IMG/VR virus record: IMGVR_UViG_3300028797_000161
Coordinates: 5,384 to 69,383 of that record
Origin: a virus
Taxonomy: Duplodnaviria; Caudoviricetes
Length of the DNA: 64,000 nucleotides
Strand: one strand, 5' to 3'
Part shown: piece after piece, positions 41,590-63,895 of the stretch
Position numbering within the stretch: the first letter of the stretch is position 1
Layout of the letters: every line of letters starts with the position of its first letter
The notes under the pieces: generated by a model
Told to the model about the DNA's origin: nothing
What the model saw: the letters and a program-made list of their open reading frames with translations, nothing else
Databases searched by the model: none
Program-made: the position numbers and the translations under genes

Positions 41590-41625
41590 GAGATGATCCC
41601 GAATAACATTTATGGAGGTTTTAAC

Positions 41626-41814
41626 ATGAAAGAGAAGTTTCACTTTGACAAACTGAGCGTGTTCAAATGGTTGCTGATCGGTATCGGAGGACTGTGTGGA
41701 TTATTTGCTACATTCTTCGATACGAAGATCAAAGACCGGCTGTATGAAAAGAAGCTCGACAAGGAGATCGAACGTCAAACGAAACGGCTGCTGGAAGAGG
41801 ATGAAGCCGCCTAA
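41626..41814 (+). CDS. Single-TM small protein
   Basis: RBS GGAGG; WLLIGIGGLCGLFATFF. Confidence 0.65.
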   Translation: MKEKFHFDKLSVFKWLLIGIGGLCGLFATFFDTKIKDRLYEKKLDKEIERQTKRLLEEDEAA

Positions 41815-41884
41815 TGTACGTGGTAGGAAAAGGTTCTGATGAAATATATCAGGGCCTTTTACCTTTTGCAGAAAGGAGCAGAAT

Positions 41885-42334
41885 TTGAAGGCGTCATTTG
41901 ATCTCGACAGATATCTTCGTCAGCAAGGTATCTCTACACGACCTATGGATTTTCCCTGGCAGAAAATGGATGATAACGAACGATGGCTGACTAAAGACGA
42001 GGCAATTAGATTGATAAATGAGTGGCGGGAAGAGGCGATCCCGACTAAAAATCTGTATTATGCTCGGATCAAATGTTCGTTGGTTCAATTTTCCAGTGGG
42101 GTCCGAAACGCGTATCTCAATACGATGCTGGATTATCTTATTGAGAGAATCAAAAAGAGCGACCATGATCCGATTACGGTTGTTGCGACATATAACTATG
42201 AGATGGATGATGTTCTCGCAATGAGCGATGCAGATCATCGAGTCACACACCGCTTTGCAGGATTCATGGAACGTTCAAGCTACGATCTTCTTTTATATCT
42301 GAAGGACAAAGAAAAGGAGTTGAATGAGAAATGA
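41885..42334 (+). CDS. Hypothetical protein (TTG start)
   Basis: RBS AGAAAGGAG 6 nt before the TTG. Confidence 0.65.
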   Translation: MKASFDLDRYLRQQGISTRPMDFPWQKMDDNERWLTKDEAIRLINEWREEAIPTKNLYYARIKCSLVQFSSGVRNAYLNTMLDYLIERIKKSDHDPITVVATYNYEMDDVLAMSDADHRVTHRFAGFMERSSYDLLLYLKDKEKELNEK

Positions 42335-43137
42335 GTGTAAAACAATGGTTTGGCAAGCTGTGGGAAGGAACAAAGCGTAATGCGCCAACCATTCTGACTG
42401 CGAGTTCGATAGGCTTATTCCTCGCCAGTACCATTGAGGCGGTGAAAGCAACACCGAAAGCAATGGAAGCAATCGAGGAAAAGAAGCAAGAAGAAGGCCA
42501 CATTGAGCTCACTGCCATGCAGACAGTTCAGGTAACCTGGAAGTTCTACGTTAAGTCAGTTCTCGCATTTATCGGTGGTACGGTTTGTGGATTCTCGGCA
42601 TTGCGTGAGAATAATAAACGCATTGCGAGCATCCTGGCAACGGCTGAGGCTGGGAAGAACATCCTTCAAGAATTCCAGGACTATCGGAAATTCGTCGCTG
42701 AGAAGATCGGTGCGAAGAAGGAAGCGGAGATTTATAACAATGCGGCGCAGGAAGTGGTTAATCGTAATCCTCCTCCCGCAAATATGAAACCAGAGTTCGT
42801 CGAAGGTCAGGCTCCTAAGCCTATCTGTTTCCATGCCGCATACGGACGGTATTTCTATGCCGATTATGAAACAGTTCGGGAAGCTATCAACCGGTTAAAC
42901 GAAAAGATCAACACGAGTCTGGAAGGATATGTAAGTCTGAATGACTTCTATTATGAAGTGGGTGTTGCTCCTACTGAATTTGGCAATATGGTCGGATGGA
43001 GTATCGAAACCGGACTTATTAAGATCCCTGCCAAAGAAGATCTTCGCTATGCTGGTACCCCTGACGGATGGCCCTGCTGGATTCTCGAATTTGAAAATCC
43101 GCCGCAATATGAATATCAGTTTTTTCGTAAGCACTAA
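42331..43137 (+). CDS. Paralog family protein (hydrophobic N-terminus, GYVSLNDFY..GW domain)
   Basis: NAPTILTASSIG..KATPKA..GRYFYAD..EGYVSLNDFYYEVGV..MVGW. Confidence 0.8.
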   Translation: MSVKQWFGKLWEGTKRNAPTILTASSIGLFLASTIEAVKATPKAMEAIEEKKQEEGHIELTAMQTVQVTWKFYVKSVLAFIGGTVCGFSALRENNKRIASILATAEAGKNILQEFQDYRKFVAEKIGAKKEAEIYNNAAQEVVNRNPPPANMKPEFVEGQAPKPICFHAAYGRYFYADYETVREAINRLNEKINTSLEGYVSLNDFYYEVGVAPTEFGNMVGWSIETGLIKIPAKEDLRYAGTPDGWPCWILEFENPPQYEYQFFRKH

Positions 43138-43172
43138 ATTCCTGTGCTTCGCTGGATGATATCGGCGGAGCA

Positions 43173-43196
43173 CGATTTTTTCAAGTTATGTTATGG
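43173..43196 (+). promoter_or_regulatory. Phage promoter-like motif, copy 9
   Basis: Identical to copy 8; hairpin GGGAC/GTCCC follows. Confidence 0.72.
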
Positions 43197-43236
43197 GACA
43201 TAGTCCCTCATAAAAAATAATTAGGAGGTCAAAACA

Positions 43237-43623
43237 ATGAACGAAGAACTCAAGAACGAAGTCGTGGAAAAGGCATTCGACGAAATGGCGGAGAAAGCGG
43301 CAGCGCTGGATCAGGCTATTGCCGAAACCGGTGTGAAACCTGCTTCTGCTCTGACTGAAGTGACCAATAACATGAGTGGCAAGAATATTGCTCTCGGCGT
43401 GGGTCTCACCCTTGGTGGTGTTGCGGGCGGCATCGCCCTTGACCGCTGGGTGTTCCCCTGGATCGGGAAGACGGTAAACAATATTCGCGGCAAGCTCAAG
43501 GCTGCTAAGGAAGAGAAGAAGGCAAAGAAGGCTGCCAAGAAAGCGCAGACTGCTGCTCCCGAAAAGCCGGCCACGAACAATGAAGTTCCTGCAGATCAGA
43601 ACTCCGAAAAGAATGAGGACTGA
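43237..43623 (+). CDS. Single-TM, Ala/Lys-rich protein
   Basis: RBS AGGAGG; IALGVGLTLGGVAGGIAL; terminator at 43633-43672. Confidence 0.72.
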   Translation: MNEELKNEVVEKAFDEMAEKAAALDQAIAETGVKPASALTEVTNNMSGKNIALGVGLTLGGVAGGIALDRWVFPWIGKTVNNIRGKLKAAKEEKKAKKAAKKAQTAAPEKPATNNEVPADQNSEKNED

Positions 43624-43695
43624 TGGACTTCTGGAGAAGGCTCTGAATAAAGGGTCTTCTCCTATTTTTTCTTTTAACAAGAGAGGAGACAAAAT

Positions 43696-44295
43696 ATGAA
43701 CGAACAGTATCCGTCCAATAGTGATCGCGGACAGGATCTCGCGAACCAAGCGTCATATCAGCAGAAACGGGTAACGGAACCGGTTGTAAACGGTAGCGTT
43801 TCCCGTAAAGATAAAAGTCTGTGGGATATGGTAGCCGAGTTCTTTGGTCTGGGAGAATGCAAAACATTCCGCGACTATGTCGGTGCGCTGAGCGATATGA
43901 CGAATCGAGTTTATGGCGCAGTTGATACTCTGCTCGGGAATCGGAAGTATACGAATACGACGGTTCCGGGTGCCAGAGTTCAGTACAGTGCCATGTATAA
44001 CCCGCAGAATCCTCCTGCACAGCAACCGGCAGCTCCTCAGGCGACTGGGGCTTATGGGCAGTATTATATTACCTACGATCTTCGTCAGGATGCGGAGGTT
44101 GTTCTTGGTAAGATGTTTGAACTGCTTCAGATGTATCAGAACGTTAGCGTTGGAGATATGTTTGACCTTGCCGGCATATCAAGTCCCAATGGATATACAG
44201 ATATGAAGTTCGGATGGAAGTCTCTTGACGGAGTCCGAGTCGTACCGTATGGAAGCAAATGGGTCATCAGTCTTCCTGCCGCTATTCAAATCTAA
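43696..44295 (+). CDS. Paralog-domain protein
   Basis: C-terminal MYQNVSVGDMFDLAG..FGW. Confidence 0.72.
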   Translation: MNEQYPSNSDRGQDLANQASYQQKRVTEPVVNGSVSRKDKSLWDMVAEFFGLGECKTFRDYVGALSDMTNRVYGAVDTLLGNRKYTNTTVPGARVQYSAMYNPQNPPAQQPAAPQATGAYGQYYITYDLRQDAEVVLGKMFELLQMYQNVSVGDMFDLAGISSPNGYTDMKFGWKSLDGVRVVPYGSKWVISLPAAIQI

Positions 44296-44309
44296 TCTGG
44301 AGGAAAGAT

Positions 44310-45215
44310 ATGAATATTAAAAACTTCATCTCCAATTTGATTGGCAAGGCCAAAGATAATGCCTCCGATCTGAAAATGGGTATTGGTACCGTCAGTGTTA
44401 TTGGCGGTACCATTCTTTTGTGTAAAGAAACGATCAATGCTTGTGATATCGTTCGTGAGTATCGTGAAGCAAAGCAGAAACTGATCGATGAAGGCGCTGA
44501 GAAAAGTGAAATCCGAAAACTGACAGTGAAAACGGTCGGTAAAGTCGCCGTTACCGTTGCTCCTGGCGCTGCTGTCGAAGTAGGCGGACTTGGTCTTATG
44601 TGGAATGGATATTCTAATACCAAGACCGCACTGATCGGCGTTAGTATGGCATACGGTGAACTTCAGGAATTCAACAACAAATATCGTCAGAAAGTTCGTG
44701 ACGAATATGGCGAAGAGGTTGACGAGAAGTTCGCCTATGAATTCCAGGAAAAAGAGGTTGTTATAACCGATGAAAACGGAGTTCAGAAGACCGAAACGGT
44801 TAAAATCTATCCGAATGATTATCGGAAAATGCCGAGCGTTTATGCCCGCTATTTCTGCTATGGTGAAGCGGAAGGAGCGGAGAGAAGCTTCGACTATAAT
44901 GATCATTTCCTTCATGCCCAACAAGAAATGGCAAACCGGTATCTGAAAGCACATAAGAAAATGATGCTGAATGAGCTGTATGATATGCTCGGCATCAAGC
45001 ATAGCAAAGCTGGGTATAATGTCGGCTGGATCTATGATGAAAAGAATCCCGAGGGTGATAACAAAGTTAAGCTTCGTGTTCGTGTTGTCTATCGGGAGAT
45101 TCTGGATCCGATTACTGGCGAACCTACCGGTTACGAACGTGTGCACATGATCGATCCGAATGTCGACGGCATGGTCGTTGATAAACTGGTTCAGCGTGGA
45201 CTGATCGAGGAATGA
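44310..45215 (+). CDS. Paralog family protein
   Basis: Hydrophobic N-terminus; YARYF..MMLNELYDMLG..VGW. Confidence 0.78.
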   Translation: MNIKNFISNLIGKAKDNASDLKMGIGTVSVIGGTILLCKETINACDIVREYREAKQKLIDEGAEKSEIRKLTVKTVGKVAVTVAPGAAVEVGGLGLMWNGYSNTKTALIGVSMAYGELQEFNNKYRQKVRDEYGEEVDEKFAYEFQEKEVVITDENGVQKTETVKIYPNDYRKMPSVYARYFCYGEAEGAERSFDYNDHFLHAQQEMANRYLKAHKKMMLNELYDMLGIKHSKAGYNVGWIYDEKNPEGDNKVKLRVRVVYREILDPITGEPTGYERVHMIDPNVDGMVVDKLVQRGLIEE

Positions 45216-45226
45216 GGTGAAAACAT

Positions 45227-45799
45227 ATGAATAAAGGCCTAGCATTCGTGCTTGGTTGTATCATGGGCGGGGCAGGCGGAGGTTTCCTTGCTCATACTGT
45301 TCTTAAACAGAAGTATGCGCAGAAAGCGGACGAGGAAATTATCGCCTGCCGTGAAGCATTTCAGGATGAACTGGTGAAGCTCCGCAAGGAAGCAAACGAA
45401 AAAGAGGCTGCGGAAAAGAAGGCAGCTGCTGAAGCGGCTCTCCAGAAGTATCGTGGCGAATCTGATGATAATTCCCCTCCTTTCGATGCTGAACCTAAGA
45501 AATCGGAGCCGAAACCTCAGCATGTCGCGATCGATGAGACGGATTATAATGATCCGGCGAATCCGAATAAAAAGAAATGCCTGCAGTTCTTCCCGAATGA
45601 TAATGTCCTTCTTCAAGAGGATGGAACTATTATGGACCAGGCTACCATTGAAACTACGATTGGTCTCGAAACCCTCGCATGTTTCAATGATGAGGATGTT
45701 GATAGTGTATGGATCCATAACGAGTCTCTGCAGACTGACTACGAAATCACCCAGGTTGGCATGAGCTATCTGGAGTGGAAACGTAAGTACAATCAGTGA
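45227..45799 (+). CDS. N-terminal TM plus coiled-coil acidic protein
   Basis: GLAFVLGCIMGGAGGGFLA... Confidence 0.75.
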   Translation: MNKGLAFVLGCIMGGAGGGFLAHTVLKQKYAQKADEEIIACREAFQDELVKLRKEANEKEAAEKKAAAEAALQKYRGESDDNSPPFDAEPKKSEPKPQHVAIDETDYNDPANPNKKKCLQFFPNDNVLLQEDGTIMDQATIETTIGLETLACFNDEDVDSVWIHNESLQTDYEITQVGMSYLEWKRKYNQ

Positions 45800-45810
45800 G
45801 GGGATCCTGA

Positions 45811-46374
45811 ATGGGAATGGTATTCGAAACGAGGTGGGCAGCAGGCGAACTTGAGGAAATGTATTACGATTGGCTCGTTGCAACGCATCTATCATATTGC
45901 AATGAGTACAGTATATTGCTGAGAGCTTTGTACGATACACCGTTCCGGGTTACGATTCTCATGGACGAAAACCGTGTTGGCGACGGGCTGGATATGCGAA
46001 ATAGATTTGCATATCAACTCGGATTAGGACAACAAGATCGTGAGCTCCTTAGACAAAGTCGGCCGTGTAGTGTGCTTGAGATTATGATAGGATTGGCACA
46101 ACGCTTTGACGAGGAGTATATGACGCAATATATCAATGAGGATCCCATTGGAGCTTTGGTTAAACCAATGATAGAAAGTCTTGGTCTTCAAGGATACGAT
46201 GATGTTCATTTTGATCAGTATGGTTTTAACCAGATTATGACAAATCTTTTGAACAGGACATACTCCCCTGACGGCCGGGGGAGCCTGTTTTATATTCCCG
46301 GAATATTTGCAGACATGCGCCAGATTGAAATTTGGCGTCAAATGATGATGTATTACGAAGGAGGAAATCGCTAA
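45811..46374 (+). CDS. Conserved hypothetical protein upstream of the replicase
   Basis: YYDWL..MDENRVGDGLDMR..CSVLEIMIGLA..DGRGSLF. Confidence 0.72.
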   Translation: MGMVFETRWAAGELEEMYYDWLVATHLSYCNEYSILLRALYDTPFRVTILMDENRVGDGLDMRNRFAYQLGLGQQDRELLRQSRPCSVLEIMIGLAQRFDEEYMTQYINEDPIGALVKPMIESLGLQGYDDVHFDQYGFNQIMTNLLNRTYSPDGRGSLFYIPGIFADMRQIEIWRQMMMYYEGGNR

Positions 46375-46733
46375 TGAGCAAAATTATGGAAGCGAACTTT
46401 AAGAAAGGTGTGCAGGAGCATCAGAATTCTCTTCGGGAAAGTGTTGATGCTCTGAGGAGATGTGTCAAGGACCTGTACGAGCTAGACGAGGAGAACTACC
46501 AGAACATTAAGAGTCTGAAACGGGCAGTCGAAGATCATGCCAAACAGATCGGCAATGTAAGGTCTTCTGTTGTCAGTATCCACGCCAAGCGAGCTGGAAG
46601 CGCCATCGTGATCGGAGGCGTTATATGGCTGGTCGGAAAGGTAATTAAGGCACAGTCACGAGAAATTAATGAACTTAACGAGCGTGTGAAAAAGCTGGAG
46701 GGCAATGATACATCCGAAGAAAGCGATGGATAA
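46374..46733 (+). CDS. Coiled-coil plus TM protein
   Basis: ATG overlaps the upstream stop; AIVIGGVIWLVG. Confidence 0.68.
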   Translation: MSKIMEANFKKGVQEHQNSLRESVDALRRCVKDLYELDEENYQNIKSLKRAVEDHAKQIGNVRSSVVSIHAKRAGSAIVIGGVIWLVGKVIKAQSREINELNERVKKLEGNDTSEESDG

Positions 46734-46739
46734 ATAGCC

Positions 46740-49700
46740 ATGGTCGATTTTATGATGGTCTCAGAGCGGTTGATCAAAAAGGGTGGACTTGAAATGTGGG
46801 AAGTCTACCCTAAATTCAAGATCAAAAACCCAAGCGAGGACCTAATGATAAAAGGTAAAGACTTTTATGCCGTTTGGGATGAGAGAAAAGGAATGTGGTC
46901 AACAAGCGAGCAGGATGTAATTGAGATCGTCGACGGGGAACTTGATCGTTATCGCAAGGAAAACCAAGCAAAATACGATCCCCGGCCAGTTCGGGTTCTG
47001 CATATGTGGGATTCTGATACTGGCAGTATTGACCGATGGCATAAATACTGTGAGAAACAGATGCGTGATTCATTTCATATGCTAGACGAGAAACTGGTGT
47101 TTAGTAATATGGAAGCGAAGAAATCTGATTTCTCCAGTAAAAGACTTCCCTACCCGCTTGAAGCCGGATCTACGGAAGCCTGGGATCGCCTCATTGGACA
47201 GTTGTATGGCGAAAAAGAAAAGCACAAGATTGAATGGTGCATCGGAAGTATTGTAACCGGAGCAAGTAAGAAACTCCAGAAATTTATGGTACTATACGGT
47301 GAACCAGGAAGCGGTAAATCTACATTATTGGATATTATTGAAAAGCTTTTCGCAGGATACACGGACAGTGTGGATAGTAAGGCTCTAGGATCGGCAACGA
47401 ACGCATTCGCTCTGGAAAGCTTCAAGAACAATCCTTTGGTAGCAATCCAGCACGAAGGGGATCTCAGCCGAATCGAAGATAACACAAGGCTGAATTCACT
47501 TGTCAGCCATGACAAAATGACTGTGAATGAAAAGTTTAAAGGTATTTATACTAATAAGTTCAAGTCATTTTTGATTTTATCCAGCAATAAGCCGGTTAAG
47601 ATCACGGACGCAAAGAGCGGTCTTCTCCGACGTTTGATAGATGTGAGTCCGACCGGAAATCTGATCAAACCGAAGTCCGAATATAACCGGCTAAATAAGC
47701 AAATCGAGTTCGAATTGGGAGCGATTGCTTATAAATGTAAAGAAGTTTATGAAGCAGATCCTGATTATTATGACGGATATGTTCCGGTAACAATGCTTGG
47801 AGCAACAAACGACTTCTATAACTTCATCATGGATAAATGTTGGTATCGCTTTACCAAAGAAGATGGTATCTCTTTGAAGTCTGCGTGGGCTCTCTACAAT
47901 GAGTATGTAGAAGAAACACGTATGCCATATCCGCTTAGTCAGCGTGCGTTTAAAGAAGAGTTGAAGAATTACTTCACGAACTTTGACGAACGCATTACGG
48001 TCGATGGGGTGCGAACGTGGAATTGGTATAGCGGATTCAAGAAAGGTAAATTCGAAGCAAAGGTGGAGGATCAAAAAGAAACTCACATTGCAGGGGTTCC
48101 AGATTGGCTTAACATGACCGATCATAAGACAAGTGTCTTGGATAAATTCTTGAAAGATCAGCCTGCGCAATATCCGACCGAAAGCGGACGCTTAGAACGG
48201 AAATGGATAAATTGCAAGACACATCTCAAGGATATCGACGTTCATCGGTTACATCATGTAAAGGTTCCGGAACAACTAATTGTGATCGACTTTGATATTT
48301 CAGTTAACGGCGAAAAGAATCTAGAGAAAAATCTGGAGGCGGCATCGAAATGGCCGCCCACGTACGCTGAACTGAGTAGAAGCGGAAAGGCAATCCACTT
48401 ACATTACATCTATACTGGTGACGTAAAGAAACTGAGTTGTGTCTATGATGATCAAATAGAAGTCAAGACGCTTCTCGGGGATGAGTCGCTTCGTAGATGC
48501 TTGACCAAATGTAATGACCTTCCGATCGCTGAGATATCATCTGGTCTTCCACTGAAAGAGGTGAAGAAAACGGTTGATATTCAACAGGTACAAAGCGAAA
48601 AAGGTTTGCGAATGTTGATCGAGCGCAATCTGCATAAGGAAATTCATAATGGAACCAAGCCAAGCATGGATTTCATACAGAAAATCCTTGATGACGCATA
48701 TAAGAGTGGGCTTAGCTATAATGTCAACGATATGCGTAATGCGATAACTTCATTCGCGGCCAAAAGTAGCCATCAGGCAGAATATTGTCTGAAATTAGCA
48801 AACAAACTGCATTATTGCAGTAAGGATCAGGAAGAACAAATTCCTCTGGAACCCGAACCTCAGGCTATAGCGAACGATGATGAAGCTCCATTGGTGTCTT
48901 TTGATATCGAAGTTTTCCCAAATTATTTCTGTATCAACTGGAAAGTTCTTGAAGATTATACACCAAAGGATTTTGAGGGCAAGAACTTTGAGGAAAAATG
49001 GGAAAAGTATATCGAACGACTGAAAGTGGATCATAAACCAGTAGTTCGGATGATCAATCCCACGCCGGCACAGGTTGAGGAATTCCTTCGTGGTAAGCGA
49101 CTCATAGGTTATAACTGTAGACGATATGATAATCATATTCTGTATGCCAGAATGATGGGCTACAGTAATATGCAATTGTATCTCGCGAGCCAGCGAATCA
49201 TTGATAAAGGCGATCGAAATGCTTTTTTCGGTGAAGCATATAATCTCAGTTATACTGATGTTTATGACTTTGCCAGTTCGGGCAACAAGATGAGTTTGAA
49301 GAAGCTTGAGATTATCATGCACTTCTTCCATCAAGAACTCGGCCTCGCTTGGAATAAGCCGGTACCAGAGGAACTGTGGCTAAAGGTTGCAGAATATTGT
49401 GATAACGACGTTCTGGCTACCGAAGCGGCATTCAGGTTCCTGGAACCCGACTGGACAGCAAGGCAAATTCTGGCAGACATCGCAGGGATGAGCGTAAATG
49501 ATACGACTAACAGTCTGACAACGCGAATCATCTTTGATAATGTACGTAAGCCACAAGCTGAATTCCAGTATCGTGATCTCAGTCAACCTGTTAAGGAATT
49601 GAGAGAAGATGTTCTTAATTTCCTGATGGATGCTTGTCCGGAGATGATGAGTCATCTTCACGGTGAAGAAGAGTCTTTACTCCCCTATTTCCCTAGATAT

Positions 49701-51026
49701 TGCCATGAGAATGGTATAAGCACTTATCAAGGCGAGGAAGTAGGAGAAGGCGGGTATGTCTATGCCGAGCTTGGGTTGCATCTACTTGTAGCATTGCTGG
49801 ATATTGCCAGTATGCATCCTCATAGTATCATAGCCGAATGTTTGTTTGGTCCGCGATTCACGAGACGATTCAAGGAAATTGTCGACGGACGTGTTGATAT
49901 TAAACACGAGGCATGGGAGGAAGTTAACAACATTCTGGATGGCAAGCTAACCCCGTATATCCAGCGTGTTAAGAACGGTGAAATGACGTCCAAAGATCTT
50001 GCGAACGCTCTTAAGACGGCTATCAACAGCGTTTATGGATTGACATCTGCAGCATTCGAGAATGCATTCAGAGATCCGCGTAACAAAGATAATATCGTTG
50101 CAAAACGTGGCGCTTTGTTTATGGTCAATCTTAAGAAAGCAGTCCAGGAGAAAGGCTTCACCGTTGCTCACATTAAGACCGACAGCATTAAGATCCCGAA
50201 TGCAACTCCGGAAATCATAAAATTCGTCATGGATTATGGCAAGTCCTATGGATATACATTTGAACATGAGGCTACATACGAAAAGATGTGCCTCGTGAAC
50301 AACGCGGTATATATTGCCAAATATGCCACTGCAGAGAAATGTGAGGAATTGTATGGCAAGAACATGGTCCCCGGAGACAATAAGAAGAAGGGCGGGCAAT
50401 GGACCGCAACTGGCAAACAGTTTGCGGTACCGTATGTATTCAAGACGCTCTTTGAAAGGAAGCCGATCTTGTTTGAGGATATGTGTGAAACCTTCCAGGT
50501 TACAGGATCGCTTTATCTGGATTTCAATGAGTCGCTCCCGGACGTCTCAGCAAAAGAGAAAGAACTAACCAAGACCCTCAAAGCTCAAGGATACGACTAT
50601 GAGGAATGGCTGGATATTCGACGTGAATGGGAACTTGCTTTGAAGAGCGGTGACCCGGATGCTTTCAAGAGATTTAATAGTGATGTTATGGGATTCACTA
50701 AAGATCTCATGAGACTAGATGACGAGATCCAAAAAGGTCACGACTATCATTTCGTAGGACGTGTTGGTTTATTCACTCCTGTGAAGAAGGGCTGTGGCGG
50801 AGGTCTCCTTATGCGGGAGAGCGGAGGCAAATACAGCTCTGCCACCGGTGCAAAAGATTATCGGTGGTGTGAAAGCGATAGCATCGGAGCAACAAGAGCA
50901 ATCCCCGGTAAAGGAACTCGTGTGTTGACTATCGATGATATTGATAGAACATACTATAACAAACTTGTTGATGACGCCAAGGACGCGATATCGCAGTACT
51001 GTGACGTCGAATGGTTCGTATCCTAA
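46740..51026 (+). CDS. Multifunctional replicase: SF3 helicase + primase-polymerase (AEP-like) + 3'-5' exonuclease + family B DNA polymerase
   Basis: Walker A GEPGSGKS (res 187); VIDFD (D517) and HLH (H553); FDIE (D722); DIASMHPHS (D1021); KTAINSVYG (K1092); IKTDS (D1148). Confidence 0.88.
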   Translation: MVDFMMVSERLIKKGGLEMWEVYPKFKIKNPSEDLMIKGKDFYAVWDERKGMWSTSEQDVIEIVDGELDRYRKENQAKYDPRPVRVLHMWDSDTGSIDRWHKYCEKQMRDSFHMLDEKLVFSNMEAKKSDFSSKRLPYPLEAGSTEAWDRLIGQLYGEKEKHKIEWCIGSIVTGASKKLQKFMVLYGEPGSGKSTLLDIIEKLFAGYTDSVDSKALGSATNAFALESFKNNPLVAIQHEGDLSRIEDNTRLNSLVSHDKMTVNEKFKGIYTNKFKSFLILSSNKPVKITDAKSGLLRRLIDVSPTGNLIKPKSEYNRLNKQIEFELGAIAYKCKEVYEADPDYYDGYVPVTMLGATNDFYNFIMDKCWYRFTKEDGISLKSAWALYNEYVEETRMPYPLSQRAFKEELKNYFTNFDERITVDGVRTWNWYSGFKKGKFEAKVEDQKETHIAGVPDWLNMTDHKTSVLDKFLKDQPAQYPTESGRLERKWINCKTHLKDIDVHRLHHVKVPEQLIVIDFDISVNGEKNLEKNLEAASKWPPTYAELSRSGKAIHLHYIYTGDVKKLSCVYDDQIEVKTLLGDESLRRCLTKCNDLPIAEISSGLPLKEVKKTVDIQQVQSEKGLRMLIERNLHKEIHNGTKPSMDFIQKILDDAYKSGLSYNVNDMRNAITSFAAKSSHQAEYCLKLANKLHYCSKDQEEQIPLEPEPQAIANDDEAPLVSFDIEVFPNYFCINWKVLEDYTPKDFEGKNFEEKWEKYIERLKVDHKPVVRMINPTPAQVEEFLRGKRLIGYNCRRYDNHILYARMMGYSNMQLYLASQRIIDKGDRNAFFGEAYNLSYTDVYDFASSGNKMSLKKLEIIMHFFHQELGLAWNKPVPEELWLKVAEYCDNDVLATEAAFRFLEPDWTARQILADIAGMSVNDTTNSLTTRIIFDNVRKPQAEFQYRDLSQPVKELREDVLNFLMDACPEMMSHLHGEEESLLPYFPRYCHENGISTYQGEEVGEGGYVYAELGLHLLVALLDIASMHPHSIIAECLFGPRFTRRFKEIVDGRVDIKHEAWEEVNNILDGKLTPYIQRVKNGEMTSKDLANALKTAINSVYGLTSAAFENAFRDPRNKDNIVAKRGALFMVNLKKAVQEKGFTVAHIKTDSIKIPNATPEIIKFVMDYGKSYGYTFEHEATYEKMCLVNNAVYIAKYATAEKCEELYGKNMVPGDNKKKGGQWTATGKQFAVPYVFKTLFERKPILFEDMCETFQVTGSLYLDFNESLPDVSAKEKELTKTLKAQGYDYEEWLDIRREWELALKSGDPDAFKRFNSDVMGFTKDLMRLDDEIQKGHDYHFVGRVGLFTPVKKGCGGGLLMRESGGKYSSATGAKDYRWCESDSIGATRAIPGKGTRVLTIDDIDRTYYNKLVDDAKDAISQYCDVEWFVS

Positions 51027-51057
51027 AATAATAAGAATAAAAAGGAGAAAAATAATT

Positions 51058-51603
51058 ATGTTTAATCAGGAACAGTTTAACTTTGACGACACTCGCTTCA
51101 TTTTCACGACCAATTTCTCTGGGGACCCCAAGCGTGATAACTTCGGTGATACCCGCCGTAAGGTCAATCTGATCATCCCGAATGAACAGATGGCTAAGAA
51201 CCTGACCAAGGCGGGCATTAATGTTCGTCAGACCAAACCCGGCAAGTACGATACACCTGAAGAGTTTGTTCCGGAATTCTATACTACGGTTCTGATTCAG
51301 TTCCGTAAGCGGGATGGACAGCCCGTGAAGTATCCCCCGAATGTGTATCTGATCCCCGAACCCGGTGCAGAGAAAGTAAAGATGACCGAGGACACCATCG
51401 GCAATCTGGATTTCATTCGTGTGAGAAATGTCAACTGCATCGCCACTGTTCGGGAATACCCGAAAGCTGATGGCACCATGGGTCATAATCTGCAGACGCG
51501 GGTTATGTACGTGGAACAGGATATGGAACAGGATCCGTATGCGGCTCGGTATGCGAGACAGGATGAGCTCGATCCCGAATCGATGCCGGACGATACTCTG
51601 TAA
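51058..51603 (+). CDS. Putative single-stranded DNA-binding protein
   Basis: Directly after the polymerase; beta-rich; acidic C-terminal tail; highly biased codons. Terminator AGGCGGTGGCT/GGTCACCGCCT follows. Confidence 0.6.
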   Translation: MFNQEQFNFDDTRFIFTTNFSGDPKRDNFGDTRRKVNLIIPNEQMAKNLTKAGINVRQTKPGKYDTPEEFVPEFYTTVLIQFRKRDGQPVKYPPNVYLIPEPGAEKVKMTEDTIGNLDFIRVRNVNCIATVREYPKADGTMGHNLQTRVMYVEQDMEQDPYAARYARQDELDPESMPDDTL

Positions 51604-51681
51604 TTGATAAACAGGCGGTGGCTGGGGTGTGGTCACCGCCTTTCTGTACCGATTCATATTTTAAAGAAAGGAAATAAAACA

Positions 51682-52551
51682 ATGAAGATTGTTGATGCTG
51701 GTTTTGAATTTCCCTTTGGCCGAGTAATGGCCGGTTCTGTTTATAGAAAGTTGGAGATGGTTGGTCGTGTTTGTTATCAGTCAGATGCGATCGAATATAC
51801 CATTCGTCCTTCTAATGAAGAGAAATCCGATGAAAACGGCAGTGTTTATATGGAGGAAGTATATGACCTATATGCTAACGATACAAAAATTGCGACCTTC
51901 GAGAGTCTGGATGCTGTTGCTGAAGCAAAGATGAAAGCTGAATTCCTGAATGCAGAGAAATTTGTTCGTAAGCTGATCGCAAGCGGACATGAAGGCATTC
52001 TGGAACATGTCAGTTTGACTGTGAAATTCCGCGTCGACCGTGGTGTCAGTCACGAACTGGTTCGTCATCGGCTTGCCAGTTTCGCACAGGAAAGTACCCG
52101 GTACTGTAATTATTCCAAAGGAAAGTTTGGTAATGAGATTACAGTAATCAAGCCCGTGTTCTTCAAGGACATTGATAATGATGCATTTGAAGATCTTCAG
52201 CATGGAGGATTTACAATTAATCTCGACAATCCGGATCCGCGACTGCAGAAATTAGACCAAGCAGCTTCCTGGTATGATAATTGTCTTGCTGCCGAAAGGG
52301 CATATCTGTCAATGCTGAATGATGGTGCTACGCCTCAGGAGGCCCGTTCAGTTCTTCCCAACAGTCTGAAAACCGAAGTTATAATGACTGCCAATCTCCG
52401 TGAATGGAGACATTTCCTGAAACTTCGCGCGGCTGGAATTACTGGCAAACCCCATCCTCAGATGCTGGAAGTTGCAATTCCGCTGCTGATGGAACTCCGT
52501 GAGCGTCTGCCTGCTGTGTTCGATGATATTGAACCTATGAAGGTTGACTAA
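51682..52551 (+). CDS. thyX: Flavin-dependent thymidylate synthase
   Basis: GHEGILEH, VSHELVRHRLASFAQESTRY (RHRx7SxR), EARSVLP, NLREWRHFLKLR. Confidence 0.95.
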   Translation: MKIVDAGFEFPFGRVMAGSVYRKLEMVGRVCYQSDAIEYTIRPSNEEKSDENGSVYMEEVYDLYANDTKIATFESLDAVAEAKMKAEFLNAEKFVRKLIASGHEGILEHVSLTVKFRVDRGVSHELVRHRLASFAQESTRYCNYSKGKFGNEITVIKPVFFKDIDNDAFEDLQHGGFTINLDNPDPRLQKLDQAASWYDNCLAAERAYLSMLNDGATPQEARSVLPNSLKTEVIMTANLREWRHFLKLRAAGITGKPHPQMLEVAIPLLMELRERLPAVFDDIEPMKVD

Positions 52552-52566
52552 AATTGATGATATGTT

Positions 52567-52590
52567 CCATTTTTACAAACCTTCTTATGG
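52567..52590 (+). promoter_or_regulatory. Phage promoter-like motif, copy 10
   Basis: CCATT-TTTACA-AACCTTCT-TATGG. Confidence 0.75.
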
Positions 52591-52620
52591 AAGAATTTCT
52601 AATAAAAAGGAGGTTTTGGT

Positions 52621-52884
52621 ATGAGTATCTTTTGGGCAATCGTACTTTATCTGGTAATCGGCACTTTGCTGACTTTATGGCTTCATGATTCAAGAATAGA
52701 TGCGGAATTCAGCACATTGGAAAATGTGTTGGGATACATATTCGTTATCTTGACGTGGCCAATGTTAACCTTGTGGCCGGTGATCAAAGGTATATATATC
52801 GGAATAAAGTACATATTAAACCCTAAGAAAGCTGACCGAATCAAGGAGATTCTTGACGATTGGGGTGCCGAAGATAAGGCATAG
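52621..52884 (+). CDS. Membrane protein (2 TM, WP motif)
   Basis: RBS AGGAGG; ILTWPMLTLWP; similar in type to 29927-30241. Confidence 0.72.
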   Translation: MSIFWAIVLYLVIGTLLTLWLHDSRIDAEFSTLENVLGYIFVILTWPMLTLWPVIKGIYIGIKYILNPKKADRIKEILDDWGAEDKA

Positions 52885-52927
52885 AAAGAGGATTAGCCGT
52901 GAAAACGGCCTCCTCTTTTCGTTTTTT

Positions 52928-52951
52928 TTTTTTTTACATACTCCTTTATGG
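52928..52951 (+). promoter_or_regulatory. Phage promoter-like motif, copy 11
   Basis: TTTTT-TTTACA-TACTCCTT-TATGG (same N8 as copy 6), after a GAAA-tetraloop terminator at 52888-52915. Confidence 0.72.
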
Positions 52952-52964
52952 GAGGTGATGTCTG

Positions 52965-53243
52965 ATGACACAAAACGAAAAAGCGATCGACATCCTGTTT
53001 AACATGGCAAAACATCTGGTCTTTGAAAATGATAAAGTTCCAGCTGTAACCAAAGATTGTCGGATTAATTCGATTCTGATGAGGAATATGGTTCGGATTG
53101 GAGATATCGATCTCGAAAATGACCAAGATGTAAATAGTCTACAAGCCATTATACAGTGTGGTCGAATGGATCAGCTTATCGAAACTCAACTCTTTCGCAA
53201 GATTCATCTGAAGGCATCTAAATTGTTAAGTCCCTATGGATAG
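52965..53243 (+). CDS. Hypothetical protein
   Basis: RBS GGAGGTGA. Confidence 0.68.
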   Translation: MTQNEKAIDILFNMAKHLVFENDKVPAVTKDCRINSILMRNMVRIGDIDLENDQDVNSLQAIIQCGRMDQLIETQLFRKIHLKASKLLSPYG

Positions 53244-53260
53244 ATTCTGTATGGACTATT

Positions 53261-53284
53261 CGTTTTTTACAAATCCTTGTATGG
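53261..53284 (+). promoter_or_regulatory. Phage promoter-like motif, copy 12
   Basis: CGTTT-TTTACA-AATCCTTG-TATGG; hairpin GGAT/ATCC and RBS AGAAAGGAG follow. Confidence 0.75.
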
Positions 53285-59595: not shown

Positions 59596-59619
59596 CGAAA
59601 TTTACAATCTCTATTATGA
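59596..59619 (+). promoter_or_regulatory. Phage promoter-like motif, copy 13 (upstream of the nuclease-RNAP operon)
   Basis: CGAAA-TTTACA-ATCTCTAT-TATGA after terminator GAGCCC/GGGCTC (59547-59578). Confidence 0.7.
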
Positions 59620-59723
59620 GAGAGAGGACGATTAGGTCGCCTTCTCTTCTTTATTTGAACCTTGAAAATTGAATATGATTTCTAGCTCTTTTTCTTTTTA
59701 ATTATTTGGAGGTGAAGCATGGG

Positions 59724-60041
59724 GTGGCTAAACCTAAACCAATTGAGTCTTCTTTTGAACGACATTTTATAAAGAAAATTAAAGATCTCTTTCCTGGTAT
59801 GATTGTTAAAAAACTACATGATGCTCAAGGGATACCTGATCGATTATTTTTATATGGTTCCAAATGGGCAGTATTAGAGTTTAAACGATCTGCAGATGAA
59901 TCGCACCAACCTAATCAAGATTGGTATGTCCATACAATGAATAAAATGTCGTTTGCTCGTTTTATATTTCCTGAAAACAGTAAAGAGGTTTTGGAAGATC
60001 TTATACAGTTCTTTTCAGACCAGAAAGGGCAACCACAATGA
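59724..60041 (+). CDS. VRR-NUC-like nuclease (putative Holliday junction resolvase)
   Basis: ESSFE..QGIPDRLFL..VLEFKRS..PNQ; GTG start after GGAGGTGA. Confidence 0.8.
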   Translation: MAKPKPIESSFERHFIKKIKDLFPGMIVKKLHDAQGIPDRLFLYGSKWAVLEFKRSADESHQPNQDWYVHTMNKMSFARFIFPENSKEVLEDLIQFFSDQKGQPQ

Positions 60042-60595
60042 GGTTCAATGATCATTCTGAGCTTGTCGGATGTCATGCGTTCCTCGGAGCCAGTAAGTGC
60101 TCGTGGCTGAATTATGATGATAATAAACTTGCATTAAGTTACAACAATGCCTCAGCCGCACAACGAGGAACTGAGTTACATGACTTTGCTGAAAAATGTA
60201 TACGACTTGGTATCAAACTTCCAGAGACTCATCAAACTTTAAACATGTATGTCAACGATGCGATTGGCTACAAAATGACGCCAGAGCAAGTTCTGTATTA
60301 TTCGGATAATTGTTTTGGTACTGCTGACGCTATTCGCTTTGATAAAGACATGCTTCGAATCCATGATCTGAAAACAGGCGTTTCTCCTGCTCACATGGAG
60401 CAGCTAATGATTTATGCAGCTTTGTTCTGCTTAGAATATAAAGTTAAACCTGGAACAATAGCCATGGAATTGAGGATATATAAAAATGATGAAGTCACCA
60501 CTGTTAATCCTCAAGCCGATCAGATTGTTCCGATCATGGATAAAATCATTCATTTTGATAAATTAATCAGACGAATGAAAGAAAGAGGGGCATAA
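60038..60595 (+). CDS. PD-(D/E)XK / Cas4-like exonuclease (DUF2800-like)
   Basis: HAFLGAS..RGTELH..FGTADAI..IHDLKTG..EQLMIYA. Confidence 0.78.
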   Translation: MRFNDHSELVGCHAFLGASKCSWLNYDDNKLALSYNNASAAQRGTELHDFAEKCIRLGIKLPETHQTLNMYVNDAIGYKMTPEQVLYYSDNCFGTADAIRFDKDMLRIHDLKTGVSPAHMEQLMIYAALFCLEYKVKPGTIAMELRIYKNDEVTTVNPQADQIVPIMDKIIHFDKLIRRMKERGA

Positions 60596-60599: not shown

Positions 60600-63500
60600 A
60601 TGGATCCTATTACTTTGGAAATGCTGGGCGCATATTCTGGCGATCCTCTCGATTTATATGAGGTCGATGCAGAGCTCGCTCACGGAAGCACTTATGAGGC
60701 CCAAGGAGCAAGTGCTCATGGTCCGGGCGGTCGGACTAAAGAAGCGAGCTCCAACGGAGTTGGTTCCGGAAGATTTCCCAAAGGATCCGGAGACAAGCCG
60801 TATCAATCTGGTATCAATAGCTTTCTGGAACGTGTTGATTTTTATAAGAAAAAAGGGATTACAAATCAAAAAGAGTTAGCGGCTCTTTGTGGATGTGTTA
60901 ATCGCGATGGTTCTGGCAATACTACAAGCTTTCGTATTGAGTATAGTAAAGCCCTTCACGATTGGAAGCGAACCAGGGCTGCTAAAGCTCAAGAAATGTT
61001 GAACTCCGGAATGAGCAAGAAAGCGGTAGCTAAAAGTTTTGGTGTTCCTGATTCAACATTAGCCTCTTGGCTTAATCCTAAAGCTTTGGAACGTGTCAAT
61101 ATTTCTTCTAATCTTGCTGATTTTCTTGAGGAACAGGTCAAAGAAAAGAAGATGATTGATGTTGGTTCTGGGGTTGATAAAGAAATAAGCATTGAGAAAT
61201 CTCTGAATATTTCAAAAACCAAGATGGCTGAAGCTCTGTCTATTCTTCAAGATCGTGGATATCAGATGTTCTTTGGACGCGTACCTCAGGCTACGAACCC
61301 TGGACAAAAGACCACGCTCAGTGTGCTAGCTACAGCAGATCAAAAATGGAGTGATGTGTATAATCATCCTGAGTTGATACAATCCGTTAAGGATTATGTT
61401 GTACGTGAAACGATGGATGGTGAAGAGCATATTACTAAGAAATGGGAACCTCCGGCTTCTATGGATAGTTCTCGTTTAATGATTAGATATGCTGATGACG
61501 TAGCTCCTGATGGGCATACTGGCATTGAAAAAGATGGAACTATTGAGATTCGTCGTAATGTTCCTGATCTTGATATGCAGGGTAGTCATTATGCTCAGGT
61601 TCGTATACTTGTTGATGGCAATAAATATTTGAAAGGCATGGCACATTATTCGGATCATATGCCTGACGGTATTGATGTCATCTTTAACACAAATAAGCAT
61701 CGTGGTGAGGATGTTCTAAAGAAAGCGAAAACCGATCCTAAGACCGGTGAGGTTCTTAAAGACAATCCTTTTGGTGCATTGCTTCGTGAAACTGGCGGAC
61801 AGTATCATTATACTGATCCTAAGACCGGTGAAACCAAACTCGGTTTGATAAACAAAACCCGACATGAAGGTGACTGGGAAGAATGGACAGATACCCTTCC
61901 GCATCAGTTCCTTGCTAAACAACCATTACAATTGATAAATAAACAATTAGATTTGGCCATTACGGAAAAGAAGGCCGAGCTCCAAGACATCCTCGCTCTT
62001 ACAAATCCGACGGTTAAGAAATCATTGTTATTAGATTTTGCAGATGGTTGTGATTCGGATGCTGTGCATATGCAGGCTGCCAGTCTTCCCCGCCAAAAAT
62101 ATCAGGTCATTCTCCCTATCCCCACTTTGAAAGACGATGAAGTTTATGCACCCAATTTCAAAGATGGTGAAACTTTAGCTGTTGTTCGTTTCCCGCATCA
62201 GGGCAACTTTGAGATTTGCATTCTTAAAGTTAATAACCGTAATGCTCAGGGTCGTGAACTGATTGGAGAGAATCCGATTGATGCTATTGGTTTAAATAAA
62301 CGTAATGCGGATATCCTTTCCGGTGCCGATTTCGACGGCGATACAGTTATGTGTATTCCTTGTAACGATCCTCGTTATACGGATACCAAGATTGTTAATC
62401 GTCCTCCTCTGCCCGGTCTTGAAGGATTTGATCCTAAAACAGAATATAAATATGATTATTCTGAAGATCGAATGGAAATGGTCCGTGTTAAAGATAAATA
62501 TGGAAAACCTGCATTCAATGAAGATGGAACTCCTGCATACGAAGAAAAGAAAGTAACTCATTATTTCAAAAATGGTCGAGAATTCAAACCTATGACCCGA
62601 ACCGATATGGAAATGGGTAATGTAAGTAATCTTATGACAGATATGACCCTTAAGGGTGCTGCACCAGAAGATCTTGCTTTAGTTGCTCGCCATGCTCAAG
62701 TTGTTATTGATGCTGAGAAACATCATCTCGACTGGAAACAAAGCGAACATGATAACCATATCGCGGAGATGAAAAGAAAGTATCAAGAACGCATCGATGA
62801 AGAAGACGGATCTATTCATTATGGTGCTTCTACAATTCTTTCTCGTGCTAAATCTCCTACTCGTATTACTAAACCCACTGGCTCGCCTCATATTAATCCT
62901 GAAACTGGTAAATATGAGTATACTGAAAGGCAATTGCAGCCTCAAACGTATATTGATAAGAAGACCGGTAAAGAAGTAAAACGTACTGAGGAAGTGCCAT
63001 TACTCTCTACCAAAGACGATGCAATGGACATCGTATATGATAAGTATAACCCTAAGGAGGTAGCCTACGCTAAGTACTCCAATACTCTTAAAGCTCTGGC
63101 AAACGAAGCTCGAAAGGAGTATCTGGCGACTGGAGATATTAAGTTTAATAAGCAGGCAGAAGAACAATATCATGAAGAAGCAGAACATCTTCTTTCAGAA
63201 ATGTTGCTTGCCGAACTTAATGCCCCTAGGGAGAGAATGGCACAATTGTATTCTCGATCCGTATACCTTGCTAAGAAAGACATACCCGGTATTACAAAAA
63301 AGGAATTGCGTAAAGCAACTGATGTCGCTTTAGCAGAAGGACGAATTCGTTATGGTGCATCTCGAAGAAAGATTGACATTACACCGCGCGAATGGGAAGC
63401 AATTCAGGCTGGGGCTATAAACAAAACCAACCTGGAGAAAATCCTAAATTATGCTGATCCTGACAAAGTTCGTGAATATGCAACTCCTCGTGAAAGAACT

Positions 63501-63635
63501 GAATTAACAGCAGGACAAAAGGCTCGTATTATTGCTGCTCTTAATAGTAATAATCCTCCGCCAACTTCTACTCTTGCCGAACATTTCAATGTTTCTGTAT
63601 CCACTATTAATGCTCTTAGAAAAGGGAAAGGATGA
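60600..63635 (+). CDS. Single-subunit double-psi-barrel RNA polymerase (RdRP/QDE-1-, YonO- or crAss-like) with fused HTH domains
   Basis: QVR..YLKGM (K345), LPHQ, VVRFP (R530), ADILSGADFDGD (D577/D579/D581). HTH-like NQKELAALCG, MSKKAVAKSFGVPDSTLASWL and TLAEHFNVSVSTINAL. Confidence 0.78.
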   Translation: MDPITLEMLGAYSGDPLDLYEVDAELAHGSTYEAQGASAHGPGGRTKEASSNGVGSGRFPKGSGDKPYQSGINSFLERVDFYKKKGITNQKELAALCGCVNRDGSGNTTSFRIEYSKALHDWKRTRAAKAQEMLNSGMSKKAVAKSFGVPDSTLASWLNPKALERVNISSNLADFLEEQVKEKKMIDVGSGVDKEISIEKSLNISKTKMAEALSILQDRGYQMFFGRVPQATNPGQKTTLSVLATADQKWSDVYNHPELIQSVKDYVVRETMDGEEHITKKWEPPASMDSSRLMIRYADDVAPDGHTGIEKDGTIEIRRNVPDLDMQGSHYAQVRILVDGNKYLKGMAHYSDHMPDGIDVIFNTNKHRGEDVLKKAKTDPKTGEVLKDNPFGALLRETGGQYHYTDPKTGETKLGLINKTRHEGDWEEWTDTLPHQFLAKQPLQLINKQLDLAITEKKAELQDILALTNPTVKKSLLLDFADGCDSDAVHMQAASLPRQKYQVILPIPTLKDDEVYAPNFKDGETLAVVRFPHQGNFEICILKVNNRNAQGRELIGENPIDAIGLNKRNADILSGADFDGDTVMCIPCNDPRYTDTKIVNRPPLPGLEGFDPKTEYKYDYSEDRMEMVRVKDKYGKPAFNEDGTPAYEEKKVTHYFKNGREFKPMTRTDMEMGNVSNLMTDMTLKGAAPEDLALVARHAQVVIDAEKHHLDWKQSEHDNHIAEMKRKYQERIDEEDGSIHYGASTILSRAKSPTRITKPTGSPHINPETGKYEYTERQLQPQTYIDKKTGKEVKRTEEVPLLSTKDDAMDIVYDKYNPKEVAYAKYSNTLKALANEARKEYLATGDIKFNKQAEEQYHEEAEHLLSEMLLAELNAPRERMAQLYSRSVYLAKKDIPGITKKELRKATDVALAEGRIRYGASRRKIDITPREWEAIQAGAINKTNLEKILNYADPDKVREYATPRERTELTAGQKARIIAALNSNNPPPTSTLAEHFNVSVSTINALRKGKG

Positions 63636-63895
63636 TCGAAATGGTTGAAGGCTGCAGATTGACAACCGATGACAATCCGTATGATCCGTTTACTCAGTTC
63701 GATCATTGGTTCCTGTTCGATGCTGAGAAAGGTTACAATACACCTGGTTACTTAGCTCGGATTGCCAAGGTCGACGACACAATGACAGATGACGAAAAAG
63801 AAGCTGAGATTGAGCGTGCAATTGATGAGATTATTCGCCTTGACTTCCTTGGTATTTACAAGAAAGTGTACAAGAATGAGAAACAAACAGCATAA
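63632..63895 (+). CDS. Small acidic protein coupled to the RNAP gene
   Basis: ATGA overlap; LTTDDNPYDPFTQFDHW..KGYNTPGYLARIA. Confidence 0.75.
   Translation: MIEMVEGCRLTTDDNPYDPFTQFDHWFLFDAEKGYNTPGYLARIAKVDDTMTDDEKEAEIERAIDEIIRLDFLGIYKKVYKNEKQTA

Follow-up and report, generated by a model that had tools for sequence, protein, structure and literature searches.

Single-chain RNA polymerases of the two-barrel type have been described from several phages. YonO is a single-chain DNA-dependent RNA polymerase that transcribes the late genes of SPbeta, although the paper that characterised it left its means of finding promoters open (Forrest et al., 2017, PMC5467207); gp64 and gp96 of phage P23-45 are also DNA-dependent and use promoters of their own (10.1101/2022.12.01.518664). 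A protein of Lactococcus phage 1706 was placed among five families of YonO-like two-barrel polymerases (Ruprich-Robert & Thuriaux, 2010, PMC2919709), and its family was later recognised as the signature protein of a phage group that extends across Actinobacteria and Firmicutes, with an HHpred match to the Pfam RNA-dependent RNA polymerase (RdRP) family, a DxDGD loop, helix-turn-helix (HTH) segments at both termini and a suggested RNA polymerase activity (Koert et al., 2021, 10.1101/842583). Here we describe a member of this family, P0001, encoded in a 64,000-nucleotide stretch of DNA (the window) that covers bases 5384–69383 of the 69,383-bp virus record IMGVR_UViG_3300028797_000161, which CheckV rates as complete.

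The RNA-polymerase idea for this family has been in print since 2010, and again in 2021, and is not new. What is added here is a near-universal four-gene block, a 12-copy promoter-like motif, the finding that sigma-70-like sites are not enriched, and a conserved N-terminal tag. On balance, the explanation that we favour is that P0001 is an active two-barrel polymerase which, we infer, directs its own transcription of phage DNA and may be delivered to the cell in the virion.

Results

The polymerase gene (60600..63635; window coordinates, with features on the plus strand unless noted) is an uninterrupted open reading frame (ORF) for a protein of 1011 amino acids that matches PHROG 4291 ('RNA-dependent RNA polymerase') over residues 56–1009 with an E-value of 7e-285. 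It very probably encodes a single-chain RNA polymerase that shares the catalytic fold of the cellular RNA polymerases, and its product is very likely an active two-barrel nucleotide polymerase. The putative metal loop lies in ADILSGADFDGDTVM, which contains D577, D579 and D581 (DFDGD, nt 62328–62342); R530-F531-P532 (RxP, nt 62187–62195) stands 47 residues N-terminal to D577, QVRILVDGNKYLKGM makes up residues 333–347, and an LPHQ string terminates with Q436. ADFDGD corresponds to the final six residues of the cellular NADFDGD motif. In an alignment of P0001 with 59 homologues (60 sequences, identity 40–82%), Q333, R335, K345, G346, Q436, R530, P532, S574, G575 and A576 are invariant, as are D577, D579, G580, D581, M672, G673, N677, L678, D681, D704, K707 and H708. 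This invariance of the catalytic motifs indicates strong selection and excludes chance matches.

The family is large: clustering at 50% identity leaves 1641 groups, and clustering at 90% leaves more than 7700. A tblastn search returned 250 phage records, of which 249 cover at least 80% of P0001, at 32–41% identity over residues 56–1009; they come from phages of Arthrobacter (95), Gordonia (55), Streptomyces (54) and Lactococcus (13), and further from Curtobacterium, Microbacterium, Rhodococcus, Faecalibacterium and human-gut contigs. With orf75 of Lactococcus phage 1706, P0001 shares 33% identity (E 5e-140); judged by sequence comparison, the two are orthologues, and the same holds for the 'HTH/RdRP' signature protein that marks Faecalibacterium phage FP_oengus and the actinophage clusters BI, AM, AU, DJ, CC and EL. 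Another 309 family loci were found in species-representative bacterial genomes; a plasmid search found the gene on no plasmid, and NCBIfam holds no model for the polymerase or for its three neighbours in the block described below. The homologues are recorded either as 'HTH DNA-binding domain protein' (most GenBank records) or as 'RNA-dependent RNA polymerase' (PHROG and RefSeq). The former label would suit a DNA-binding regulator with a decayed polymerase core, but hundreds of the 50%-identity clusters show no change in any catalytic residue and the core segments are the most conserved of the protein, which makes such decay extremely improbable.

An AlphaFold2 model built from the 60-sequence alignment had a mean predicted local distance difference test score (pLDDT) of 84.8 and a predicted template modelling score (pTM) of 0.73, with low confidence only at residues 20–70 and 273–279. 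A Foldseek search of the PDB with this model placed QDE-1 at the top (E 2.5e-8), then P74-26 gp62, maize and Arabidopsis RDR2 and P23-45 gp64, with P23-45 gp96, the crAss-like gp66 (E 0.038) and the cellular RNA polymerases far weaker. An independent all-against-representatives structural alignment gave QDE-1 at Z 12.6 (393 residues, model residues 282–842), gp62 at Z 12.2 and RDR2 at Z 11.5, and re-alignment of the top 1000 Foldseek chains (VIA-align) gave RDR2 at Z 13.9 (371 residues aligned), QDE-1 at Z 13.2–13.4 (367–410 aligned, model residues 282–850), gp64 at Z 12.3 (357 of 595 aligned) and the largest subunits of RNA polymerases at Z ~11, superposed on model residues 483–826. Residues 495–602 alone match the double-psi beta-barrel (DPBB) of archaeal, eukaryotic, bacterial and viral RNA polymerase largest subunits, as well as designed DPBB proteins, at Z ~10 (root-mean-square deviation 1.9–3.1), and in the model the barrel that bears DxDGD is unambiguous. 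The first, beta-type barrel is supported by the whole-core superpositions of the model on QDE-1, RDR2 and gp64, which start at residues 281–287 and align 357–410 residues, and by the invariant Q333, R335, K345 and G346. We place P0001 in the two-barrel superfamily, on its QDE-1/RDR side, as a member of the 1706 family and outside the YonO family.

These neighbours raise the alternative that P0001 is an RNA-dependent RNA polymerase that makes double-stranded or antisense RNA from phage or host transcripts, for regulation or counter-defence. Its best structural neighbours are QDE-1 and RDR2, the PHROG and RefSeq labels name such an enzyme, and one homologue passes the Pfam RdRP model (PF05183, cut-off 23.8), P0018, 68% identical to P0001, scoring 27.2 bits, with P0046 (17.7) and P0126 (12.4) below the cut-off. 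Yet the labels were transferred from the Pfam name and not from assays, three to five modules of DNA-binding type are hard to explain on RNA templates, and all characterised phage members of the superfamily are DNA-dependent. QDE-1 itself copies DNA as well (PMC9508822), and its structure has been determined on DNA templates. We regard an RNA-dependent activity as very unlikely, and P0001 is, by analogy with the characterised phage enzymes, probably a DNA-dependent transcriptase of phage genes.

The catalytic core is framed by predicted DNA-binding modules. A leader of residues 1–70 (60600..60809), predicted to be disordered (pLDDT <50 at residues 20–70), is followed by a helical DNA-binding region, residues 71–184 (60810..61151), recognised from Pfam matches, model helices and the alignment pattern G..s..eIA..lG..ESTvR. 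In the model this region consists of two HTH-like units (approximately residues 75–96 and 136–160) bridged by a long helix; CENP-B_N matches residues 135–162 (37.1 bits, cut-off 21.2), and CENP-B_N, HTH_23 and HTH_7 all match within residues 124–162. A winged-helix-like unit, residues 185–260 (61152..61379), has a helix-helix-strand-strand order in the model; homologue P0090 matches HTH_24, Fe_dep_repress and TrmB over this unit, which also gives weak structural matches (Z 7.2–8.1) to the extended winged-helix domains of TFIIIC. The first barrel (beta-like, DPBB-B) occupies residues 285–430 (61452..61889) and is joined by a helical connector, residues 431–494 (61890..62081; model helices 443–465 and 470–490), to the second barrel (beta-prime-like, DPBB-A), residues 495–602 (62082..62405), with RxP and the metal loop; in the model the connector would correspond in place to the clamp connector of gp64 and QDE-1 (10.1101/2022.12.01.518664). 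A variable beta insertion (residues 603–666) separates the second barrel from the most conserved helices of the protein, residues 667–730 (62598..62789; MGxxSNLxxDM and IDAEKHxLD, conservation 0.72, with invariant residues), which are probably the bridge-helix region.

Residues 731–925 form mixed and helical regions. The C-terminal helical region, residues 818–962 (63051..63485; model helices 818–961), carries ITxREWEAIQAGAI, in which conservation reaches at least 90% at W932, A934, I935, Q936 and A939, and its residues 926–962 make up a conserved three-helix unit. At the extreme C-terminus, residues 971–1011 (63510..63632) show the HTH alignment pattern ys..EIA..LGVS.STV.KY. Pfam matches to this HTH (approximately residues 971–1008) are sub-threshold in P0001 and above threshold for HTH_23, HTH_7 and Sigma70_r4_2 in P0046, P0055 and P0090. 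The homologues score 31.8–36.0 bits against Sigma70_r4_2 (threshold 25.7), yet HTH_23 and HTH_7 score higher; since this HTH is no closer to sigma-4 than to other short HTH families, we do not call it a sigma domain. The model shows helical modules at residues 75–183 and helices at 929–1008, and P0001 ends in one or two HTHs.

An earlier note on this DNA, made from the letters alone, had proposed a polymerase of the QDE-1/RDR type with HTH-like segments near the N-terminus and at the C-terminus. The motifs that it had picked out (DFDGD at nt 62328–62342, RFP, the QxR..KG string and LPHQ) all lie where it had put them, with their key residues invariant, and the HTH-like segments are supported by Pfam, by homologues and by the helices of the model. 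A double-psi barrel, on which that proposal had been staked, is present in the model, and QDE-1 and RDR2 are the best whole-core structural matches, with the phage enzyme gp64 next. Of the comparisons that it had named for the model, QDE-1 came first in Foldseek and phi14:2 gp66 was a weak match. Its further ideas, DNA dependence and promoter reading by the HTHs without a sigma factor, met with no contrary evidence and are favoured by some of the context.

The polymerase gene is the third of a four-gene block. Upstream lie a small endonuclease gene (59706..60041, phrog_93), present at 22 of the 24 viral loci and at 77 of the 80 loci in genomes, and a gene for a PD-(D/E)XK-type exonuclease (60038..60595, phrog_3953, DUF2800-like, from family matches), which stops 5 nt before the polymerase start codon. 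Downstream, the start of a gene for an 87-aa protein (63632..63895, phrog_4303) overlaps the polymerase stop (ATGA). The whole block is kept in 22 of 24 related viral loci; at genome loci with enough flanking sequence, the polymerase has the exonuclease as its immediate neighbour in 75 of 77 cases and the small gene in 73 of 73. Phages FP_oengus, Rima and ReqiPepy6 have the same block, the exonuclease adjoining the polymerase in Rima and ReqiPepy6; P162 keeps the polymerase, the small gene and the genome end, its upstream genes carrying no nuclease annotation, and in phage 1706 four genes stand between exonuclease and polymerase. The polymerase and the small gene end approximately 100–350 bp from the right genome end, so that in a circularised or concatemeric genome these two genes would immediately precede the HNH, terminase and head genes.

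The 87-aa protein, translationally coupled to the polymerase, has invariant T12, D14, N15, W26, D30 and Y76 and belongs to no known family. A complex prediction of polymerase residues 120–1011 with this protein scored 0.17 against a mark of 0.32, a result that is uninformative on binding either way. The four-gene block also occurs inside large contigs of cultured Lachnospiraceae and relatives (loci L041, L050, L054, L071, L087, L088 and L091), among them Hungatella hathewayi WAL-18680, [Ruminococcus] torques ATCC 27756, Blautia faecis, Lachnospira hominis, Enterocloster lavalensis and Cuneatibacter caecimuris, the last with two copies; its position within large bacterial contigs indicates that the lineage has integrated prophages besides lytic phages. 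Elsewhere in the window, 46740–51026 encodes a 1428-aa protein with a DUF5906/primase-helicase part and a family-B-type DNA polymerase part (phrog_4210, phrog_1252 and several primase PHROGs).

The motif TTTACA-N8-TATGG, to which the earlier note had drawn attention, is indeed enriched: allowing at most one mismatch there are 12 copies, all on the plus strand, against 1.4 expected. Eleven copies of the form cgATTTTTACA-N8-TATGG lie within 29467..53284 (at 29467, 29872, 30266, 31203, 34065, 34692, 41571, 43178, 52572, 52933 and 53266), and a variant, TTTACA-N8-TATGA, lies 55 nt upstream of the four-gene block (59601..59651, from motif search and leader fold). Each copy is intergenic, 15–40 nt ahead of a ribosome-binding site and ATG, usually behind a terminator-like hairpin, and its GG often starts a short hairpin. 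The copies span 29.4–59.6 kb only; the structural half of the genome (window 1–29 kb) and genome positions 1–5500 hold none. These properties fit a phage-specific promoter read by a phage-specific enzyme, and a bipartite site of ~24 bp would suit a protein with several HTH units. Relatives whose polymerases are 50–69% identical share the motif, one copy of which stands, with a conserved leader hairpin, immediately ahead of the block, and the relative L007 (polymerase 43% identical) has the variant CGCGAAAAATAC-N8-TAATGA.

Sigma-70-like sites occur at chance frequency in the window (48 against 45.9, and 52 against 43.1, in shuffled sequence), and a sigma-70 reading of the motif itself was rejected, the 8-bp spacing being unfit and no consistent −10 element standing 16–18 bp after TTTACA. 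A possible host-type (sigma-A-like) promoter, TTTACA-17-TACAAT, lies at 59172–59200, upstream of the operon. The variant copy at 59601–59651 is followed immediately on its 3' side by a 14-pair hairpin and a T-run, a leader-terminator-like arrangement that is the same in relatives L003 and L004 and may control expression of the polymerase. Terminator-like hairpins number 32 between 27000 and 46900 (13.7 expected), nearly all on the plus strand, and since many abut the promoter-like motif the early region resembles a string of terminator-promoter cassettes. Separately, the 8-mer TTGATATT is strand-biased in the window (14 plus against 1 minus, 5.5 expected in total) and lies mostly within genes; in relatives the bias is 19:0 (L004, L014) and 13:0 (L020), and tandem arrays of the word occur close to the genome end, shortly after the polymerase block. 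A polar signal for packaging or replication, or one of Chi type, would be a possible role.

The motif might instead be read by the host RNA polymerase, with or without a small phage factor, and P0001 might make primers, R-loops or structural RNA for replication, recombination or packaging. TTTACA does resemble a −35 hexamer, the motif is not linked to the enzyme directly, and in nearly all relatives the polymerase is locked together with the endonuclease and the PD-(D/E)XK exonuclease at the genome end, beside cos. But the 8-bp spacing and TATGG do not suit sigma-70 geometry, a −10 element at the proper distance occurs, as by chance, at one of the 12 sites, the phage already possesses a primase-helicase-polymerase fusion, and gene transcription is the function of the characterised phage enzymes that come nearest in fold, namely gp64 (Z 12.3) and, at a greater distance, YonO. 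Phage T7 pairs an RNA polymerase of its own with an endonuclease and an exonuclease, and given this precedent the nuclease block fits a host-takeover module equally well. We therefore judge a role confined to such accessory RNA synthesis to be unlikely, and favour transcription of phage genes by P0001 itself.

The leader of P0001 holds an acidic stretch, ELAHG (residues 25–29) and the Gly-rich SGRFPKGSGDKPYQ (residues 56–69). In all 60 aligned sequences, and in Rima, P162 and FP_oengus, a variable acidic leader is followed by Phi-x-H-(Y)-G and then by SGR(Y/F)PxGSGxxPYQ; the Gly-rich element has a conservation of 0.80, the highest outside the core. Homologue P0126 matches DUF7211 (PF23847) with a score of 31.8 (threshold 27); residues 1–100 of P0001 give no match and keep only the L-x-H-G start of that domain, of which a literature search found no mention. 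The P0001 tag resembles the predicted maturation site of the capsid protein, LAHG|..LFP, and from its sequence the leader motif is a candidate tag for head loading or for processing by a protease.

Two observations on the head genes concern the same motif. The protease-scaffold-capsid fusion at 2381–4408 has six Phi-x-H-[AGS] sites in an acidic linker (residues 128–348). In the whole fusion the density of such sites is 11.8 per 1000 amino acids, against 1.8 in the proteome, and the last of them, EALAHG|FDSESLTLLFP, falls at the expected start of the mature capsid protein, as do NLQHG|VENIDILFP in Rima gp14 and DLKHG|LTNLDVLFP in P162_0011 by comparison; Phi-x-H-[AGS] is likely, as a sequence-based prediction, to be the cleavage motif of the prohead protease. 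In addition, three phrog_32444 paralogues flanking the large terminase gene (genome 1412–2371, 4149–5288 and 5304–6317; locus L027, the last continuing as window 1–934) share the P0001-type N-terminal tag in the form L-x-H-(H/F/Y)-G-(V/I)-K-G-Q-K-H-G-I-R-R-W, of DUF7211 type, and one of them has a weak C-terminal HTH match. They are candidate head cargo proteins.

The virion proteins of phage 1706 were reportedly identified by mass spectrometry, and the depositors of GenBank EU081845.1 label orf75 a 'structural protein'. Taken together, the tag, this label, the location of the gene, always shortly upstream of the packaging genes, and the absence of the motif from the late region make delivery of P0001 in the virion about an even bet. 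P0001 may otherwise be a non-virion middle or late polymerase in the manner of YonO, made early from a host-type promoter, its tag having another role. The YonO gene likewise stands just upstream of the late operon that YonO transcribes, the sigma-A-like site at 59172–59200 would provide such a promoter, and prophage copies exist in cultured Lachnospiraceae; on the other side, the motif is absent from the structural half (window 1–29 kb, genome 1–5500) and marks early and middle genes, orf75 bears its 'structural protein' label, and the tag is common to proteins of the head module. We consider this course of events possible, if rather unlikely.

Discussion

We suggest that P0001 copies double-stranded phage DNA. 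Initiation would take place at the cgATTTTTACA-N8-TATGG sites that precede early and middle genes, and the enzyme would locate these sites through its N-terminal HTH-HTH-winged-helix module and its C-terminal HTH, with no sigma factor, a proposal for promoter reading by its own HTHs to which we give an even chance. P0001 would probably be made late, together with the packaging genes, loaded into the head by means of its N-terminal tag, and delivered with the DNA; a polymerase so delivered would make phage transcription independent of promoter recognition by the host. In its fullest form, which we put forward tentatively and think somewhat less probable than not, P0001 would be a portable transcription machine, made late, loaded by its tag, trimmed by the prohead protease after L-x-H, injected, and able to read a ~24-bp promoter with neither sigma nor host polymerase. 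If this is true, independence from promoter recognition by the host could help explain how one phage lineage spans Actinobacteria and Firmicutes.

Several points weigh against this reading. Searches of solved structures by sequence, with P0001 or with the 60-sequence profile, returned HTH proteins only and no polymerase; P0001 has no match to the Pfam RdRP model PF05183 at E-values up to 1; and hhalign of the 60-sequence profile with YonO, a weak test as YonO entered as a single sequence, aligned 81 columns around RxPH..DxDGD with a probability of 0.2% and E 0.28. The link to enzymes of known activity thus runs through fold and motifs, and QDE-1 and RDR2, which come closest in structure, are known chiefly for RNA-dependent activity. 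Most relatives at ~40% identity lacked the strict motif in the 10–20 kb examined of each, and no copy of the motif was found in the examined stretches of Rima, P162 and FP_oengus; a relaxed search in the ~40%-identity relatives found little beyond the L007 variant, and k-mer counts in the intergenic gaps of relatives returned mostly ribosome-binding sites and the unrelated TTGATATT. Motif and polymerase are linked by co-occurrence within one phage lineage, which shared descent would also explain. Since a copy of the motif also precedes the operon of the polymerase itself, the initial supply of enzyme would have to be brought by the virion or made by host transcription. The 'structural protein' label of orf75 is a depositors' annotation. 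Finally, a literature search found no biochemical study or measured activity for any member of the 1706 orf75 family. The earlier note knew of no biochemical characterisation in this size class; as a statement on the size class this is too broad, YonO (839 aa) being a characterised protein of similar size, but it holds for the HTH-bearing family, for which none was found.

The family of P0001 appears to fuse promoter-reading modules to the polymerase core; as the same genome supplies a clear, countable candidate promoter, the family is well placed for the question of how single-chain two-barrel RNA polymerases find their promoters. Its members occur in ~250 phages in culture and also in prophages of gut Clostridia that are cultured, so that material for testing is easily obtained. 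If the proposal is true, it would provide a compact, sigma-free pair of polymerase and promoter for gene expression in Gram-positive bacteria, as well as a further independent case of a virion-delivered RNA polymerase. Judged from its sequence, P0001 is a further member of a catalogued and computationally described family, and its interest lies mainly in the ease of testing and in the question of promoter recognition in this class of enzyme.

Among known systems, the closest is the 1706 orf75/PHROG 4291 family itself, with full-length orthology (33–41% identity over residues 56–1009), the same motifs, HTHs at both ends and the four-gene block at the right genome end, in phages that also share the protease-capsid fusion and carry all genes on one strand. 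P0001 differs from it in nothing categorical: its leader is longer, with ~25 residues separating L-x-H-G from SGR..GSG, and its source is an uncultured 69-kb phage of gut or rumen type. The eukaryotic RNA-silencing polymerases QDE-1 (Neurospora) and RDR2 (plants), of PF05183, are the best overall structural matches (Z 13.2–13.9), but they are 10–14% identical to P0001, use RNA or single-stranded DNA templates, are promoter-free and are without HTH modules. The virion RNA polymerases phi14:2 gp66 (PDB 6vr4), P23-45 gp96 and that of N4, which has a different fold, may have a lifestyle in common with P0001, namely a late gene, a packaged enzyme and early phage-specific promoters; in structure, however, gp66 is a weak match and gp96 a moderate one (Z 9.3–9.7), and packaging of P0001 is suggested by its tag and by annotation.

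P23-45 gp64 and P74-26 gp62 (PDB 8f72 and 8f5m) are the closest phage structures (Z 11.7–12.3, 348–357 of ~595 residues, model residues 284–845) and are non-virion, single-chain, DNA-dependent two-barrel RNA polymerases with a promoter motif of their own. They differ in being ~600 aa long and 13–15% identical, and the term 'helix-turn-helix' was not found in the text of 10.1101/2022.12.01.518664. YonO is, like P0001, a single phage-encoded chain with RxPH followed by DxDGD in the same order, and its gene too lies directly upstream of the late or structural operon; it differs in that no HTH was seen in its sequence or record (a domain scan was not run), the 81 aligned columns being all core. 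The wording that we prefer, by analogy, is that P0001 probably works like YonO or gp64, both of them single-chain two-barrel phage enzymes that copy DNA.

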